NCBI GenBank assembly: GCA_034005175.1
Contig: JAVEVF010000001.1
Span: 1 to 45,167, forward strand
Source: Coriobacteriia bacterium
Lineage (GTDB): Bacteria; Actinomycetota; Coriobacteriia; Anaerosomatales; SLCP01
Length of the DNA: 45,167 bases
Reading direction: 5' to 3'
Both the position numbers and the translations under genes were made by a program. The notes below the pieces were generated by a model. The model ran no database searches. It was not told the origin of the DNA and was given only the letters and a program-made list of their open reading frames with translations. Below are positions 433 through 31,328 of the stretch, one piece after another. Within the stretch, counting starts at the first letter, position 1; every line of letters begins with the position of its first letter.

Positions 433-786
433 CTATCTGTCAGCTGGCTCGTCGTCCTCGGCAAGCGCCGCGTCAAGCGAGGCTTGCATCGACTCAAGAC
501 GGCCTCGCAACTCGGCGACTTCAAACAGGAGGTCATCGAGTTTCGACTCGACATCGGCCTTCGAACCGGGCGGTTCCATCTCACCCGATGCCAGCTTGGC
601 CTTCAGCCGCTCCTTCTCCGCCGAGATCATGGCTGACAAGCCATCCACGAACGCTTCCGGGCCTGCCTCCATGCTGCCAGGGGCTTGGTCCTCGCCGCGT
701 ACCACTGCAGCCTTCCATCCTTCATCGGCCGTCTCGTGGATTAGAGCCCAGGCCGCCAGGAACTGCATGAACTGATCCTCGGCCAC
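433..786 (-). CDS. hypothetical acidic coiled-coil protein (117 aa)
   Basis: GTG start preceded by GGAGGTGGAAGC. The C-terminal half is heptad-like (AEKERLKAKL...LLFEVAELRGRLESMQASL). It sits directly upstream of and co-directional with the ABC1 kinase. No family recognised. Confidence 0.55.
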   Translation of the reverse strand: MAEDQFMQFLAAWALIHETADEGWKAAVVRGEDQAPGSMEAGPEAFVDGLSAMISAEKERLKAKLASGEMEPPGSKADVESKLDDLLFEVAELRGRLESMQASLDAALAEDDEPADR

Positions 787-870: not shown

Positions 871-3273
871 TCATGGTTTGCGAGTCAGCAGGCGCATCCC
901 ATTGAAGATCACGAGCAGCGAGACACCCGTGTCTGCGAATACCGCCATCCATAGGGTCGCAACCCCTGCCATGGCGAGTGCCAACACTGCACCTTTGACT
1001 GTGACAGACAGGGCTACGTTCTGCCGGATGATGCTCACTGTGCGCCGTCCGAGCGCCAAGAATCTCGGAATCTGCATGAGGTCATCAGACATGAGAGCCA
1101 CGTCCGCTGTCTCAAGTGCCACGTCACTACCCGCAGCCCCCATGGCGATCCCGAGGTCAGACGCTGCCAGCGCAGGGGCGTCATTGATGCCATCTCCGAT
1201 CATGGCCACGGGACCGAACACCCGCCGCAGATCATCGACAGCTTCGGCCTTCTCGTGGGGCAGCAGCCGGGCCTTGTACTCGCTGACCCCTGACTGAGCT
1301 GCGATAGCGGCGGCTGTACGCTCGTTGTCGCCGGTAAGCATCACGCAGTGCTCCACGCCTCCTGCCCGCAGGCGCTCGATTGAGTCCAGCGCCTCATCCC
1401 GCACCTGATCGGCTACTCCGATCACGCCGATCGCACGCCCTTCCTCCGCAAGTACAAGGACCGTGCGCCCCTCCTCTTCGAGGCCCCTCACCACGGCGCC
1501 AGCATCGTGCTGCGCACGGTGGTCTTCTGCTGCAAACTCGAGGGTGCCCACCGCGTAGGAGACGCCATCGACGACACCTCGGACGCCACCACCCAACACG
1601 TCCTCGTAGCGTGTGACGCGCGCACGGTCACACTGCGGACCAGCTGCCTTCACCACGGCACGTGCCAGCGGGTGGTTGTTGTGTGCCTCGAGGTTGCCTG
1701 CAAGCGCGATCACGCGAGAGGGGTCTGCGCCATCGAGAGGGATGACATCGGTCACCTCAGGCCGACCGGATGTGAGCGTTCCGGTCTTGTCGAAGGCCAC
1801 CACCTTGACGCGCGCCGCCGTCTCCAGATGGATGCCGCCTTTCACCAGCACACCGTCGCGTGTCGCGCGGGTGATAGCCGAGACGATGGAGACCGGCGTC
1901 GAGATGACAAGCGCACACGGGCACGAGATCACGAGTAGGACAAGCGCACGGTACAGCCACACGTCAAACGCTCCCCACGAAGCCCCAAGCGCTGCACCCA
2001 CCAACGGAGGCACCACGGCGATGCCCGCCGCCAACACCACGACGGCAGGCGTGTAGTATCGTGCAAATCGGTCGACGAGCTGTTGTGAGGGCGCCCGTGA
2101 CCCTTGCGCCTCCTCCACAAGGTGGACGATGCGCGCGAGCGTGGACTCTGCCGCCCTCGAGGTCACGCGCACCTCAAGATGCCCGCTTGTGTTGAGCGAC
2201 CCTGCGTACACGACATCCTGAACGCTCTTGTTGACCGGCACCGACTCACCGGTGATGGGCGACTCGTCGACCGCAGACATGCCGCTTTCAACGATCCCGT
2301 CAAGCGGGATACGCTCACCTGGCCGCACGGAGATGAGCTCACCTGGCAGGACTCCAGACGCCAGGACTTCGCGCTCTCGGCCCTCGCGCGATGTGCGAGC
2401 CACTGGTGGGCTGAGCTCCATCAGGTCACGAATCGAGCGGCGTGTGCGTGCCAAGGAGCGCGATTCAAGCAGTCCGCCCAGTGAGAAGAGGAAGACCACC
2501 ACTGCCCCCTCGGCCCACTGCCCGATAGCCGCCGCACCGATCACAGCGATGGTCATGAGCACGTTCATGTCGAGCACATGCGCACGAACAGACGCCAACG
2601 CGCGGCGCAAGATAAGCGAGCCGCCGCTCGCAGTGGCAGCTGCGAACGCCATCACAGAGGCCGTGTTCGCCCACCCTGCCGCAGCCCTGCTCAGCACCCA
2701 TGCCAGCACGATGAGTGCTCCGGATACGGTGGTTGATAGCGTGTGGCCATGCACCTCCCACCAGCTAGGCGCGATGGGCACCTCGACCTCTACGACCTCA
2801 GGAGTCATCAATGGCTCGATACGATAACCGGCAGAGCGCACGATCTCCAGAGCACGAGTACGCGGATCGCTCTGAGAATCATACTCAAGCACCATGAGTC
2901 CACTTGCGAAGTTGACGTCGGCAGAGATGACTCCAGGGATACGCTTTACGGACTTGGCCACGGTCCGTGCGCAGTCGGGTCAATCCAGGCCGCTAAGCCG
3001 ATAGGACACGTGTGCCACGCCGGCACCGATCTCCAGGGCTAGTGTTTCAACCGCCGAGCGCAATACCTCCTCAGGCACCTCGTTGGGATCGTAGGTGACA
3101 GAGATCGTCCGGCCATCGGGATCAATGAGAGCGCGATGCACCCCTTCCATCGCGGTGACAGCCACGCGCAACCGCTCGTCACACTCCGCACACTGCACCT
3201 CATCGCCCAGAGGTGACGCAAGCGCGACCTCGGCGGTCTGAAGTGGTGTCATCGAAGCTGACTCGATGCTCAT
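871..3273 (-). CDS. cadA: P1B-2 type (Zn/Cd/Pb) heavy-metal translocating P-type ATPase, read through one in-frame TGA at 2980-2982 (about 800 codons)
   Basis: Track ORFs 871-2961 and 2980-3273 share one frame and are separated only by TGA plus 6 codons. Motifs: SCPCALVISTP, DKTGTLT, GDGINDAP, and TM8 WMAVFADTG as in ZntA/CadA. The N-terminus has a CAEC domain and then YRLSGLD-TGA-PDCARTVAKSVKRIPGVISADVNF, which aligns with the ZntA-type motif GMDCxxCA. The ATG at 3273 overlaps the arsR-type stop (ATGA). Confidence 0.85.
2940..2973 (-). other. candidate bacterial SECIS-like stem-loop downstream of the in-frame UGA
   Basis: RNA UGCGC-ACGGAC-[CGUGGCCAA]-GUCCGU-AAA-GCGUA. The upper stem is 6 bp (2963-2968 with 2948-2953). 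The lower stem is 5 bp (2969-2973 with 2940-2944), with a 3-nt AAA bulge between them. The stem starts 6 nt after the UGA and the 9-nt apical loop starts 18 nt after it. The loop contains GU/GG. Confidence 0.45.
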
Positions 3274-3644
3274 CGACGCTCCCCTGCGTGCGCAAGCCCT
3301 TGGGCAAGCAAGCTCTCTACGTGCGCATCGGCGAGCCGGTACACCACGTGCTTCCCGTCGCGTTTGGAGGTCACAAGACCCCTATCACGCAACAGGCGAA
3401 GCTGGTGGCTCGCGGCCGACTGCGTGACACCGATGGCAGCAGCGAGATCGCAGACACACTGGTCGCCAACGGAAAGCACCCAGAGAATGCGCAGGCGCGT
3501 GGGGTCAGAGAGCGTGTCGAAGATGCGTGCCGTCGACTCGAAATGAGCGGCATCGGGAAGCTCTTCTTCTCCATGAACAATCGGCTGCGGGCCGCTGGCC
3601 ACAGAACCGCAAGAGCGGTGAGGCTTATATGAACGTGTGCTCAT
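3270..3644 (-). CDS. ArsR/SmtB-family metalloregulator (CadC/ArsR-like, CVC site)
   Basis: FDTLSDPTRLRILWVLSVGDQCVCDLAAAIGVTQSAASHQLRLLRDRGLV is the winged-helix core, with the alpha3 CVCD metal site. I place the start at ATG 3644 (MSTRSYKPHRSCGS...) because a consensus promoter sits immediately upstream. The track start at 3749 looks over-extended. Confidence 0.85.
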   Translation of the reverse strand: MSTRSYKPHRSCGSVASGPQPIVHGEEELPDAAHFESTARIFDTLSDPTRLRILWVLSVGDQCVCDLAAAIGVTQSAASHQLRLLRDRGLVTSKRDGKHVVYRLADAHVESLLAQGLAHAGERR

Positions 3645-3655
3645 ACGTTCATATA
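3626..3655. promoter_or_regulatory. 11-8-11 perfect inverted repeat, candidate ArsR/SmtB operator
   Basis: TATATGAACGT (3626-3636), 8 nt, ACGTTCATATA (3645-3655). It overlaps the -10 element and the ATG of the regulator. The TATA..GAAC / GTTC..TATA arms resemble known SmtB/CzrA/CadC-type operators. Confidence 0.6.
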
Positions 3656-3801: not shown

Positions 3802-4659
3802 TTACTCGGCTTCTACCGCCACAGCGATGCCGGGAGCGGGTGAGCCATGCGCATCTCCCGCATCGTCATGGCCGTGGCCGGGCTTGACCTCTAGCTCTCG
3901 GAGACCGAAGAAGTCCAGGCTGCACGGAATGTCGATGGTGAGCGAGAGATAGAAATGCGCGGTCACCATGAGGATGAAGAGCCAGTTGATGACGTAGTGG
4001 AACATGCGCATCCACCAACCCGCGAGGTCCGTGCTGCCGAGCAACGCGCCCAACCACCAGCCCACGAGCAGATCACGCGGACTGTAACCAAAGATGAATG
4101 GAACGGTGACAAGCGCGAAGCCAGTGAAGACCTGCGCAACCATCAGCACAAGGAAGATGAGGTAGACCAGCTTCTGCATCACGTTGTACTTCGCGATGTG
4201 CGGCTTGTAGTTGCTGAGGTACGCGTAGAACTTCGCCACAGCGATCAAGCTCGCCATATCCTCTCGGCCAACCGCGAATTCGCGCCAGTCCTTGCCCTTG
4301 GAGAAGAACGCGTACCAGATTCTCCAGAGCAGCGTGATCGTCACGATGACCATCGCAACGTAATGCACGTAACGCATCGCCACTCTGCCCCCATCGAAGA
4401 AGGGGAACCGAATGTACATGCCGGTGAATGCGAGGGCGAGGATGCACACCATGTGGATGAAGTGAATGACCTTGGGCTGGGCGGGAATAGCCACATCGTG
4501 ATCGGGCCACTGGCCCTCGAACCATCTCTTCTGGAACCTGCCGGTGATGATGTCGAAGGCGAAATGCACGGTGAGCGCCACAAGCATGAAGGCGTACACC
4601 ACGACAAACGCCACATCGATCCATACGTTGAGCACGGTCAAGTCCATGATGTCCCCCAT
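3802..4659 (-). CDS. polytopic membrane protein, cytochrome b561 / Ni-Fe-hydrogenase b-type cytochrome-like, with a His/Asp-rich C-terminal tail
   Basis: Several hydrophobic helices carry conserved-looking His residues (HFAFDI, HFIHMVCILA, YVHYVAMV, FHYVINWLFILMVTAHFY). The tail is KPGHGHDDAGDAHGS. The family assignment is from memory of PF01292-like proteins and is not verified. Confidence 0.5.
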   Translation of the reverse strand: MGDIMDLTVLNVWIDVAFVVVYAFMLVALTVHFAFDIITGRFQKRWFEGQWPDHDVAIPAQPKVIHFIHMVCILALAFTGMYIRFPFFDGGRVAMRYVHYVAMVIVTITLLWRIWYAFFSKGKDWREFAVGREDMASLIAVAKFYAYLSNYKPHIAKYNVMQKLVYLIFLVLMVAQVFTGFALVTVPFIFGYSPRDLLVGWWLGALLGSTDLAGWWMRMFHYVINWLFILMVTAHFYLSLTIDIPCSLDFFGLRELEVKPGHGHDDAGDAHGSPAPGIAVAVEAE

Positions 4660-28444: not shown

Positions 28445-29689
28445 TCAGTCGCCGGCCAGACCGGCCTCCCTCACGATATCCATGTCCTTGTCGCCTCGTC
28501 CTGAGACATTCACGACCACCACACCATCAGGTCCGAGTTCGGGCGCGAGGCGGGGCAGCAGCGCCAGAGCGTGGCTGCTCTCGATAGCGGGGATGATGCC
28601 CTCGGTGCGGGTCAACAATGCGAACGCCTCGAGCGCCTCGGTGTCGGTGACGGCTTCGTAGCGCACAAGGCCCTCATCCTTCAGATAGCTGTGCTCGGGG
28701 CCTACACCTGGGTAGTCAAGACCTGCCGAGATGGAGTACGCCTCCGCTGGGTTGCCCTCATCGTCCTGCAGCATGTAAGAGTAGAAACCGTGAAGCGTGC
28801 CAGGGGCGCCCTGTGTGAGTGACGCGCCATGCTTGCCGGTCTCGACTCCGAGCCCCGCTGCCTCGGCACCGAATAGACGAGGCCGCTTGTCGGCAGGCAC
28901 CTCACGGAGGAAGGGATAGAACATCCCGATAGCGTTGCTGCCCCCGCCGATGCATGCGATGACCGCGTCGGGCAGGCGCTCCCCGTGACCTTGAAGCTGT
29001 AAGAGGGTCTCCTCACCGATGACCTTCTGAAACTCCCGCACGAGCGCTGGGTAGGGATGGGGCCCCACAGCGCTTCCCAGGACGTAGAAGGTGTCATCAA
29101 CGCGGTCCACCCAGTGGTTCAACGCTGCCGTCACGGCATCAGCGAGCGTTCCGGTCCCCTCGGCGACAGAGACGACCTCGGCACCGAGCAACCGCATCTT
29201 GTAGACGTTCAGCGACTGGCGGCGGATATCCTCAGTGCCCATGAAGACCGCGCACTCAAGCCCCATGAGCGCTGCGGCGGTAGCGGTGGCGACGCCGTGC
29301 TGCCCCGCTCCGGTCTCGGCGATGACGCGCTGCTTTCCCATCCGGCGTGCGAGCAGACACTGCCCGATGGTGTTGTTGATCTTGTGAGCACCTGTGTGGT
29401 TGAGGTCCTCACGCTTCAGGTACACACCGCCGAGGCCCACGGCCTCAGCGAGCCGGTCGGCTCGATACAGCGGCGACGGACGGCCCACGTAGTCGCGCAG
29501 AAGCGCGCCGAACTCCTCGTGAAACGCGGGGTCGGCAAGCGCGGCGTGGAAGGCCTCCTCGAGCTCGGTTAGCGCTGGTTCCACCGTCTCGGGGACGAAC
29601 GTGCCCCCGTAGGGCCCGAAGAAGCCCCTGGCGTCGGGGCTTGAGTATGCCATCTCAACGGAGGGCATGAAGACGTCGCTCACACTCAC
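28445..29689 (-). CDS. trpB: tryptophan synthase beta chain (canonical TrpB1 type)
   Basis: [14 protein letters not shown] (PLP lysine), GAGQHG and [11 protein letters not shown] start after GAGGAGG. Confidence 0.95.
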
Positions 29690-29792: not shown

Positions 29793-31139
29793 TTATGCGC
29801 CTTCGCACATCGAACCAGCGGCGAAATCATAATCCTCCAGCTGACCGGTGTTGTACGCTTCATACGCCGAGAGGTCGAAGTGACCGTGACCGGATAAGCC
29901 GAACAGGATGGTGCGGTCCTCACCGGCTTCCTGTGCGGCAAGCGCCTCGTCGATCGCGGCACGGATTGCATGGCTGCTTTCTGGTGCCGGCAGGATGCCT
30001 TCTGTGCGCGCAAACGTCACGGCCGCGTCGAAACATGCGTTCTGATGCACCGCGACGGCTTCGATCTCGCCTTCCTTGCGCAGCAGCGAGACCAGTGGCG
30101 AATCGCCGTGATAGCGCAGACCACCTGCATGGATGCCCGCAGGCACGAAGTCGTGCCCGAGCGTGTACATCAGCATCTTCGGCGTCATGCCGGCCTCGTC
30201 GCCAAGGTCGTAGCGGTAGTCGCCGGCGGTTAGCGTCGGGCAGGCCTTGGGCTCCACCGCAAGCAACCGCGCCTTGGTGTGCCCGTCGAGTCGACGCTTG
30301 TAGTACGGGAAGGTCAGACCAGCGAAGTTCGAGCCGCCACCGATACACGCGACGACGACGTCCGGCTCGGCCTGTGCCATCTCCATCTGAACGATGGCTT
30401 CCTCCCCGATGATGGTCTGGTGCAGACAGACGTGATTGAGCACGCTTCCCAGACAGTAGTGGGTGTCCTCGCGCATGGCAGCATCCTCGACAGCTTCTGA
30501 GATGGCGATGCCGAGGCTGCCAAGCGAGTCCGGGTCGAGATCGAGCACGTGACGTCCGGCATTTGTGCGGGTGGATGGCGACGAGATGACCTCGGCACCA
30601 TAGGTCTCCATGAGGATGCGCCGGTAGGGCTTCTGGTCATAGGAGATGCCCACCATGTACACGACACACTCCATACCGTACAGCGCACATGCGATAGAAA
30701 GCGCACTCCCCCACTGCCCCGCGCCGGTCTCGGTGGAGATGCGCTTGATGCCCTCCTGCTTGTTGTAGAAGGCCTGTGGGATGGCGGTGTTGGGCTTGTG
30801 GCTGCCAGCCGGAGACACGCCTTCGTACTTGTAGAAGATCTTCACGCCCTCGGGCAGGCCGAGATGCTTTTCGAGCTGACGGGCGCGGTTGAGCGGTGAG
30901 GGGCGATACGTCCGGTAGACGGCAAGGACCTCCTCGGGAATCTCGATGTAGCGCTCCATCGAGACCTCTTGTTTGATGAGCTCCATCGCAAAGAGGGGGG
31001 CGAGGTCTTCTGGGCCGACGGGTTGATCAGTGGCGGGATGCAGCGACGGGGCAAGCGGTGTGGGCAGATCGGGGTTGATGTTGTACCACTTCGTCGGCAT
31101 CTGTCTTTCATCGAGCACGTAGCGTGTCCTGTCTGCCAT
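29793..31139 (-). CDS. TrpB2-type tryptophan synthase beta-like PLP enzyme
   Basis: [26 protein letters not shown]... is a typical TrpB2 N-terminus. Also SHKPNTA (PLP Lys), GAGQWG and GGGSNFAG. The start is set at ATG 31139 after GAAGGAGGAG. The track start at 31310 would run into the T-box terminator. Confidence 0.9.
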
Positions 31140-31290
31140 GTCGCTCTCCTCCTTCACTCCTACGTCCTGCTTCTCCGATGTGCTCGGATCTCGTGCCCAT
31201 GCGTGGCCCTGTCGCGCTTGCCCGACATGCAGGCTGCACGCGAACGCAGACATGACGCACATCCCTTCTGAGAGGGAGTGAGGAGCCCAG

Positions 31291-31328
31291 AAATACAAAT
31301 AACCCCTCATCCCTCAAGGGACGAGAGG
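31291..31328 (-). terminator. intrinsic terminator of the T-box leader
   Basis: RNA CCUCUCGUCCC-UUGA-GGGAUGAGGGG forms 11 bp including G-U pairs, followed by UUAUUUGUAUUU. The 5' arm can alternatively pair within the antiterminator that contains the T-box sequence. Confidence 0.8.

Follow-up and report, generated by a model that had tools for sequence, protein, structure and literature searches.

A conserved in-frame UGA, predicted to encode selenocysteine, in the metal-binding domain of a heavy-metal ATPase from uncultured Coriobacteriia

We analyzed a 45,167-nucleotide stretch of DNA from a Coriobacteriia bacterium (assembly GCA_034005175.1, contig JAVEVF010000001.1, positions 1 to 45,167; hereafter the window), in which the gene for a P1B-type heavy-metal ATPase contains an in-frame UGA (TGA in DNA) at the position of a metal-binding cysteine. 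We consider it very likely that this TGA is a conserved selenocysteine (Sec) codon with its own hairpin signal, in one heavy-metal export ATPase of about 800 residues. The same interpretation was offered in a preliminary description of the sequence, and all of the sequence-level checks suggested there came out in its favor. Based on comparison with related loci, we conclude that the codon is translated and is under selection together with an RNA structure. We infer in addition that Sec is the inserted residue, that SelB binds the hairpin, that the selenolate serves as a metal ligand, and that the pump has the metal specificity proposed below.

Results

An ATPase gene split at a single in-frame UGA

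The complete read-through gene occupies 871..3273 on the minus strand and comprises 800 codons followed by a terminal TGA stop. Open reading frame (ORF) calling divides it into an ORF of 97 amino acids (3273..2980, minus strand), terminated by the TGA at 2982-2980, and an ORF of 696 amino acids in the same frame (2961..871, minus strand), with GTG as the called start. The gap between them consists of the TGA and six sense codons (PDCART). The preliminary description had treated the two ORFs as one gene, which our analysis confirms. The read-through peptide is ...AHVSYRLSGLD-[UGA]-PDCARTVAKSVKRIPGVISADVNFASGLMVLEYD..., with U98-P-D-C101 as its single UxxC motif, and no other in-frame stop is found in the 800 codons.

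The remainder of the gene is intact, as had also been claimed. The motifs SCPCALV, ADTGVSLLVIFN, FDKTGTLT, NHPLA, and GDGINDAP were read directly from the sequence, and ADTG is present as well. From the N-terminus, the predicted protein contains a heavy-metal-associated (HMA)-like domain with an ordinary CxxC (C28-A-E-C31; 3019..3216, minus strand; a two-stretch match to PF00403), a second HMA domain with the UxxC, and a core of eight transmembrane (TM) segments with CPC in TM6 and DxG(x)7N in the last TM, together with DKTGT and GDGINDAP. Its Pfam domains are PF00122 (E1-E2_ATPase), PF00702 (Hydrolase), and PF00403. The protein scored 589.6 bits against TIGR01525 (cut-off 346.25) and 504.6 bits against the cadmium family TIGR01512 (cut-off 313.5), and it did not reach the ZntA equivalog models NF033775 (539 vs 1240 bits) and NF008262 (602 vs 1005 bits). 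Judged by these profiles, the ATPase belongs to the same subfamily as enterobacterial ZntA, but is not a predicted ZntA ortholog or equivalog. In the P1B classification, metal specificity is assigned from sequence motifs, and by this rule the ATPase is a putative P1B-2 (Zn/Cd/Pb-type) heavy-metal pump, with the transported metal predicted from the class.

The candidate Sec codon is codon 98 (2980..2982, minus strand), at the first metal-ligand position of GLD-U-PD-C in the second HMA domain (2824..3003, minus strand). When Cys was put at the TGA, PF00403 covered residues 91-150 at profile positions 2-61 of 62, which places codon 98 inside the HMA domain. Sequence matches of the Cys-substituted domain in the PDB included CopA, ATP7B, PacS, ZntA (1MWY, 4UMV), and CadA (2AJ0), and in these alignments the substituted Cys sits opposite the first Cys of G-M-x-C-x-x-C. 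The Pfam and PDB alignments thus bear out the earlier assignment of the TGA to the first metal-ligand cysteine of the HMA loop.

The codon is TGA in all Sec-type relatives

The protein-level comparison rests on the 120 best ATPase matches. At least 71 of these are called as proteins of ~680-720 (or ~770) amino acids that start just past the CxxC position ((M/V)AKSV...), and 47 are full-length with Cys at the TGA column. In the DNA of nine shortened matches (58-76% identity), the homologous codon is TGA in every case, preceded by (Y/W)-x-(L/V/I)-x-G-L-D and followed by P-D-C-A-R. The separately called upstream ORFs of relatives, 87-99 amino acids long, match PF00403.

Metagenome contigs were also scanned with two patterns that are blind to the codon in question, GLDxPDCAR and GV[IVT]xAD[VL]NFA, which yielded 80 loci. 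The codon is TGA in 51 of them and TGC or TGT in the other 29. These 51 loci, the window, and 10 loci reached through called homologs make up a set of 62 Sec-type loci with 57 distinct sequences. The homologous codon is TGA in 62/62 and TAA or TAG in none. The GLD-U-PDCAR signature is invariant across the 57 distinct sequences, followed by T, A, or S at the sixth codon. Identities among these ATPases go as low as 57%. The TGA is retained whether or not the protein has the first HMA-like domain or an additional Cys-type HMA domain. For example, HMA-like domain 1 is missing in three related loci (L010, L015, and L016), and three others (L012, L039, and L062) have an extra Cys-type HMA domain located after the Sec-type one. 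Given this variation in N-terminal HMA composition, the Sec-bearing domain is the constant element.

The presence of TGA in Sec-type loci, and of TGC/TGT or Cys in other relatives, constitutes a classical Sec/Cys pair. Alignment of orthologs had been proposed as a check on the Sec interpretation, and it gave the supportive outcome: more distant relatives have Cys (TGC/TGT) in the column, and many independent contigs have TGA. An internal comparison comes from the terminal stop of the gene itself, which among ten orthologs is TAG in five, TGA in four, and TAA in one, and long ORFs in the fetched loci terminate with TGA in 58% of cases. An internal codon that is always TGA while the terminal stop varies is far beyond chance. 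The base following the UGA is C in all TGA forms. In E. coli, UGAC is the weakest context for termination by release factor 2 (RF2).

The UvrB encoded in the window shares 79-92% identity with proteins of metagenome-assembled genomes named Coriobacteriia, Coriobacteriales, or Actinomycetota. The closest named relatives of the ATPase are annotated as 'Coriobacteriia bacterium' and 'Anaerosomatales bacterium', and the TGA form predominates among the close relatives sampled, which are uncultured Coriobacteriia (OPB41/Anaerosomatales-like). A crude neighbor-joining tree of 119 ATPases places the window within a pure Sec clade of 28 and contains approximately seven Sec/Cys switches, a number that the tree is too crude to establish reliably. 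None of the distant ATPases (31-40% identity) recovered by scanning genome contigs with the full protein has TGA at the CxxC.

A hairpin downstream of the UGA distinguishes TGA forms from Cys forms

A candidate bacterial selenocysteine insertion sequence (SECIS) hairpin lies at 2941..2973 on the minus strand, corresponding to nt 10-42 counted from the U of the UGA. It consists of a 6-bp upper stem, ACGGAC/GUCCGU (2968-2963 / 2953-2948, minus strand), a 9-nt apical loop, CGUGGCCAA (2962-2954, minus strand), that starts with C-G-U-G, and a lower stem, GCGC/GCGU, that is set off by a 3-nt bulge within the same interval of the minus strand. The 5' arm begins 11-12 nt past the UGA and the apical loop begins at nt 21. 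A published model of bacterial SECIS elements (PMC13188914, Fig. 2) describes an apical loop of 3-9 nt on an upper stem of 4-16 bp, a G within the first two nucleotides of the loop with G or U after it, a UGA-to-loop spacing of 16-37 nt, and a minimum free energy of -7.5 kcal/mol or lower. The window hairpin falls within all four of these constraints, with a 9-nt loop on a 6-bp stem, a G-U starting at loop position 2, a spacing of 17 nt, and a free energy of -11.4 kcal/mol for the 33-nt element. The 23-nt upper hairpin alone, at -7.3 kcal/mol, is borderline relative to the energy limit.

All TGA forms share the sequence UGA-CCN-GAY-UGY-GCN-CGS-RCC-GUG, followed by the complement of the CGSRC segment. 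An uninterrupted stem of 5-9 bp, with a 5' arm ending at nt 19-21 and a loop of 3-9 nt, is found in 57/57 distinct sequences. Two versions account for nearly all of them. In class A (46 sequences, among them the window), (A/G)CGGAC is paired with GUCCG(U/C) around the same 9-nt loop as in the window. In class B (10 sequences), the stem is CGCAC/GUGCG or CGCGC/GCGCG and the loop has 3-5 nt (CGUGA, CGUGG, or GUG). The remaining sequence, L062, has the hairpin GCGCGGUC/GGCCGCGC. Within the stem, the Arg codon has G at its synonymous third position opposite C in 47 sequences and C opposite G in 10, such that this base is paired in 57/57. RNAalifold recovered the same six pairs as in the window from 16 class A sequences, although class A alone is invariant, and it recovered the class B hairpin with A-U to G-C compensatory pairs.

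The Cys forms lack this hairpin, and the qualitative contrast with the TGA forms is complete. The stem closing a loop at nt 20-22 has a median length of 6 bp in TGA forms compared to 2 bp in 24 Cys forms (Mann-Whitney p = 1.9e-12, which overstates independence because the sequences are related). When synonymous codons were resampled, the mean stem length was 3.7 +/- 0.24 (maximum 4.4 in 300 trials) compared to 6.3 observed, again among related sequences. Identity of synonymous codons among ten orthologs was also elevated near the UGA, at 0.62-0.70 in 8-codon windows starting from 1 codon before to 7 codons after it, compared to 0.45 +/- 0.09 gene-wide. A SECIS search had been suggested at the outset as a further check, and its outcome is a hairpin at the canonical distance in all TGA forms that is absent from Cys forms.

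In overall geometry the element is similar to the SECIS elements of E. coli fdhF and fdnG, which are also hairpins in the coding sequence starting ~11 nt past the UGA, with a G-U in the apical loop around nt 22-24 (counting from the U of the UGA). The location of the G-U at nt 22-23 presumably resembles that of G23-U24 in fdhF. The hairpin differs from those of fdhF and fdnG in sequence, which is unrelated, and in its apical loop, which measures 9 nt in class A and 3-5 nt in class B.

Selenocysteine machinery and points of caution

The Sec-decoding trait has been recorded in the Coriobacteriia Eggerthella lenta, Slackia heliotrinireducens, Cryptobacterium curtum, and Collinsella aerofaciens (supplement of PMC5029168). 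The window comes from an uncultured lineage of the same class, and we count this distribution as indirect support for a Sec codon. For OPB41/Anaerosomatales themselves we found nothing decisive on Sec machinery in the literature, and the description of the cultured OPB41 strains is silent on the question. We also looked in the window for a second selenoprotein gene and recognized none among ~110 TGA-split ORF candidates. These split ORFs are noise in DNA of 62% GC, and those that look coding run antisense to genes with Pfam support.

Several observations weigh against our interpretation. Neither selA, selB, and selD nor tRNA-Sec was found in the 45-kb contig or the fetched loci, in searches that used Pfam on 30 window ORFs for the machinery and ARAGORN on the window and 96 loci for the tRNA. 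No Rfam SECIS family was matched at the site at either the gathering or the E<=10 threshold. In single-sequence folding, the hairpin is no more stable than shuffled sequences (z = -0.5 to -1.4), so that only the comparative data carry weight for it. Even there, the 5' arm and the start of the loop lie largely in codons for invariant amino acids (C-A-R-T-V), and part of the nucleotide conservation is therefore driven by the protein. The phylogenetic relatedness of the sequences also means that the p-values overstate their independence. Lastly, we found no biochemical verification of a UxxC ATPase selenoprotein in the selenoproteome survey literature.

Alternative explanations for the in-frame UGA

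One alternative is that the UGA is read through without Sec, either by near-cognate Trp or Cys insertion or by a Cys-charged tRNASec-like tRNA, with the hairpin acting as a generic stimulator of read-through. The failure to find Sec machinery in the 45-kb contig and fetched loci is compatible with this idea, as is the nature of our data, which establish translation of the codon but not the identity of the inserted residue. We nevertheless regard it as improbable. The codon stands exactly at the Cys position of homologs, the geometry of the hairpin and the G-U in its loop fit the SelB-type bacterial SECIS model, and this ATPase family appears among the UxxC selenoproteins listed for Sec-decoding bacteria. 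In addition, a plain TGC would be a simpler way to encode Cys, and TGC or TGT is used in 29/80 of the loci found by the codon-blind scan.

A second alternative, which we consider very improbable, is that the TGA is a genuine stop, so that the locus encodes a soluble metal-binding protein of ~97 amino acids and a separate, N-terminally shortened ATPase starting from GTG. Gene callers, including those of JGI and NCBI, do annotate two ORFs, and a GTG is available about 18-21 nt downstream of the TGA. Against this, the six codons that separate the TGA from the GTG remain in frame and encode PDCAR(T/A/S) in 57/57 distinct sequences, and termination would sever strand beta-1 of the HMA domain from the metal-binding loop. 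In the three loci that lack the first HMA-like domain, the 'upstream protein' would comprise just ~20 residues. The called downstream starts vary from contig to contig (MAKSV, MKQIPGV, VVRADV, and MVLEYD), and the codon is uniformly TGA across the 62 loci while the true terminal stops vary.

The remaining explanation, a sequencing or assembly error or the mark of a decaying pseudogene, draws on the single base that separates TGA from TGC or TGT, and is ruled out, with a negligible probability left to it, by the comparative data: the same TGA recurs in 57 distinct sequences that come from many independent metagenomes and metagenome-assembled genomes, and the remainder of the gene is intact, as are the operon and the synteny. 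The preliminary description had likewise argued against decay, and its argument is upheld by relatives that are free of other disabling lesions and keep the synteny.

Discussion

A selenoprotein pump of this kind has already been predicted in other bacteria, and the feature described here is not new in kind. The UxxC heavy-metal ATPase of TIGR01525 is a predicted selenoprotein family in surveys and reviews from 2007 (PMC1976440), 2008 (PMC2398784), 2016 (PMC5029168), 2022 (PMC9312934), and 2026 (PMC13188914). The preliminary description had mentioned that UxxC variants of metal-handling proteins appear in selenoproteome surveys, and these five publications substantiate this for this very family. 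The published annotation of the family comprises pfam00122, COG2217 ZntA, and TIGR01525, with ABB15669.1 of Carboxydothermus hydrogenoformans as an example. It was among the known families with 7 Cys homologs in the Olavius dataset (PMC1976440), was represented by 1 Sec and 882 Cys sequences in GOS (PMC2398784), and comprised 32 genes in 25 organisms in a later survey (PMC5029168). Review tables list UxxC transporters as implicated in heavy-metal resistance, with roles yet to be investigated (PMC9312934, PMC13188914). Like the published family, the window ATPase scores above the TIGR01525 cut-off, has a single Sec (predicted) as the first residue of an N-terminal UxxC, and is predicted from a Sec/Cys pair combined with a downstream hairpin. 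It agrees with the family in the features tested, a comparison made at the level of family features.

The prokaryotic selenoproteome surveys do not mention uncultured Coriobacteriia (OPB41/Anaerosomatales-like) as carriers. What our analysis adds is a new, large, unannotated, and consistently mis-annotated clade from these bacteria, its invariant GLD-U-PDCAR signature, and two SECIS versions linked by compensatory synonymous change, all recognized by sequence comparison. In JGI, ENA, Logan, and NCBI, the entries seen for the clade consist of an orphan ~97-amino acid 'HMA' ORF and a shortened ATPase without the metal-binding loop. For example, P0017, P0022, P0044, P0093, P0102, and P0109 are split in this manner, with start codons that are inconsistent between contigs. 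Truncation at the UGA is thus a systematic annotation error that affects at least 71 of the 120 best matches. A Sec-aware rule for TIGR01525/TIGR01512 proteins, based on G-L-D-U-P-D-C-A-R and the hairpin, would repair the split annotations.

Other known systems place the pump in context. ZntA/CadA P1B-2 ATPases with all-Cys HMA domains, including the N-terminal domain of E. coli ZntA (1MWY), Shigella ZntA (4UMV), and Listeria CadA (2AJ0), share with the window protein the G-x-D-C-x-x-C loop of the HMA domain including its Asp, CPC in TM6, DxG(x)7N in the last TM, DKTGT, HP, GDGINDAP, and a score above the TIGR01512 cut-off. They also share an ArsR/SmtB regulator with a palindromic operator, which is predicted in our case. 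The window pump differs from them in its UGA-encoded first ligand and its extra N-terminal HMA-like CxxC domain. The NF041115 'UxxU metal-binding (seleno)protein' is similar in having Sec in the metal-binding loop of an HMA-like fold, and is listed as a putative mercuric-reductase-related metal-binding protein (PMC13188914). Unlike the window domain, which forms part of a pump and carries a single predicted Sec (UxxC), NF041115 is a stand-alone protein of ~74 residues with two Sec (UxxU), and the window HMA domain matches it below threshold (47 bits vs a cut-off of 95).

We propose that the single gene would give rise to a single pump of ~85 kDa. SelB-GTP-Sec-tRNASec would bind the hairpin in the coding sequence and outcompete RF2 at the weak UGA-C stop, placing Sec at codon 98 and giving the second cytosolic HMA domain a metal-binding loop of the form U-x-x-C. 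This loop would adjoin the conserved Asp, a residue characteristic of divalent-metal (Zn/Cd/Pb) sites. The operon would be an ArsR/SmtB-repressed unit similar to cadCA/czrAB, consisting of a palindromic operator, the regulator, and the translationally coupled pump, in which ArsR/SmtB would repress at the palindrome and metal would induce expression.

A more far-reaching possibility, which we consider unlikely, is that the selenolate ligand has long been fixed in a housekeeping Zn/Cd/Pb pump across an order-level lineage of subsurface/anaerobic Coriobacteriia, with the two SECIS versions kept by compensatory synonymous changes. If this were the case, Sec would give the pump a property that Cys cannot give. 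Such properties could include capture of very soft metals (Hg, Cd, and Pb) at far lower free concentrations, a site that withstands oxidation or sulfide, or an ability to handle metal-selenium species. A UGA and SECIS at codon ~20-98 could also make synthesis of the pump conditional on selenium supply. The result would be a non-redox, metal-ligand role of Sec in a membrane transporter, a role for which no experimental verification is known.

To our knowledge, nearly all characterized selenoproteins are redox enzymes. Here, Sec is predicted to replace a metal ligand in the regulatory/acquisition domain of a transporter. The clade offers dozens of natural Sec/Cys pairs with which the effects of a selenolate on metal affinity and selectivity could be studied, and the two hairpin versions with their co-varying synonymous Arg codon provide clean, naturally occurring data on how SelB recognizes SECIS elements in Actinomycetota.

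The operon and neighboring genes

The ATPase gene is preceded by a gene for an ArsR/SmtB-family metalloregulator (3270..3644, minus strand; 124 amino acids from the ATG at 3644). Its product scored 97.8 bits against NF033788 (cut-off 55) and matches PF01022 (HTH_5), and ArsR homologs are 124-129 amino acids long. The translational coupling of regulator and pump noted in the preliminary description is based on a real ATGA overlap, with the arsR stop at 3272-3270 and the ATPase ATG at 3273-3271. Relatives share the gene order ArsR, ATPase, ~117-amino acid ORF, UbiB, and NadE-like.

A 14-2-14 inverted repeat, TATATGAACGTaTG-AG-CAcACGTTCATATA (also written TATATGAACGT..ACGTTCATATA), is located at 3626..3655 over the start of arsR, and the same palindrome is found at the same place in L007, L008, and L014. 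Judging from its sequence and position, it is likely the ArsR/SmtB operator of the operon. The near-perfect palindrome covers the ATG of arsR itself (3644-3642), which suggests that the arsR mRNA may be leaderless or have a very short leader. A consensus scan found no sigma-70-like promoter.

Directly after the ATPase gene, every related locus has an ORF of 113-121 amino acids with no Pfam or NCBIfam match (window 433-786, minus strand; L007 5176-5529, L008 5177-5530, L009 3808-4161, L012 5363-5704, and L014 5109-5474). A UbiB/ABC1-family kinase gene always comes next, forming a conserved pair beside the pump. Just upstream of the arsR-ATPase operon, the window has a gene for a membrane protein of the cytochrome b561 / Ni_hydr_CYTB family (3802-4659, minus strand). 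This gene is likewise present in the closest relative (L007 1327-2172), and other relatives have a gene for a phosphoenolpyruvate (PEP)-utilizing enzyme instead.

Farther along the window, a T-box leader (RF00230; 31314-31611, minus strand) scored 95.4 bits, just over the gathering score of 93. It lies directly upstream of the gene for a 505-amino acid pyridoxal phosphate (PLP)-dependent (PALP) enzyme (29793-31310), which is followed by a second PALP gene at 28445-29689.

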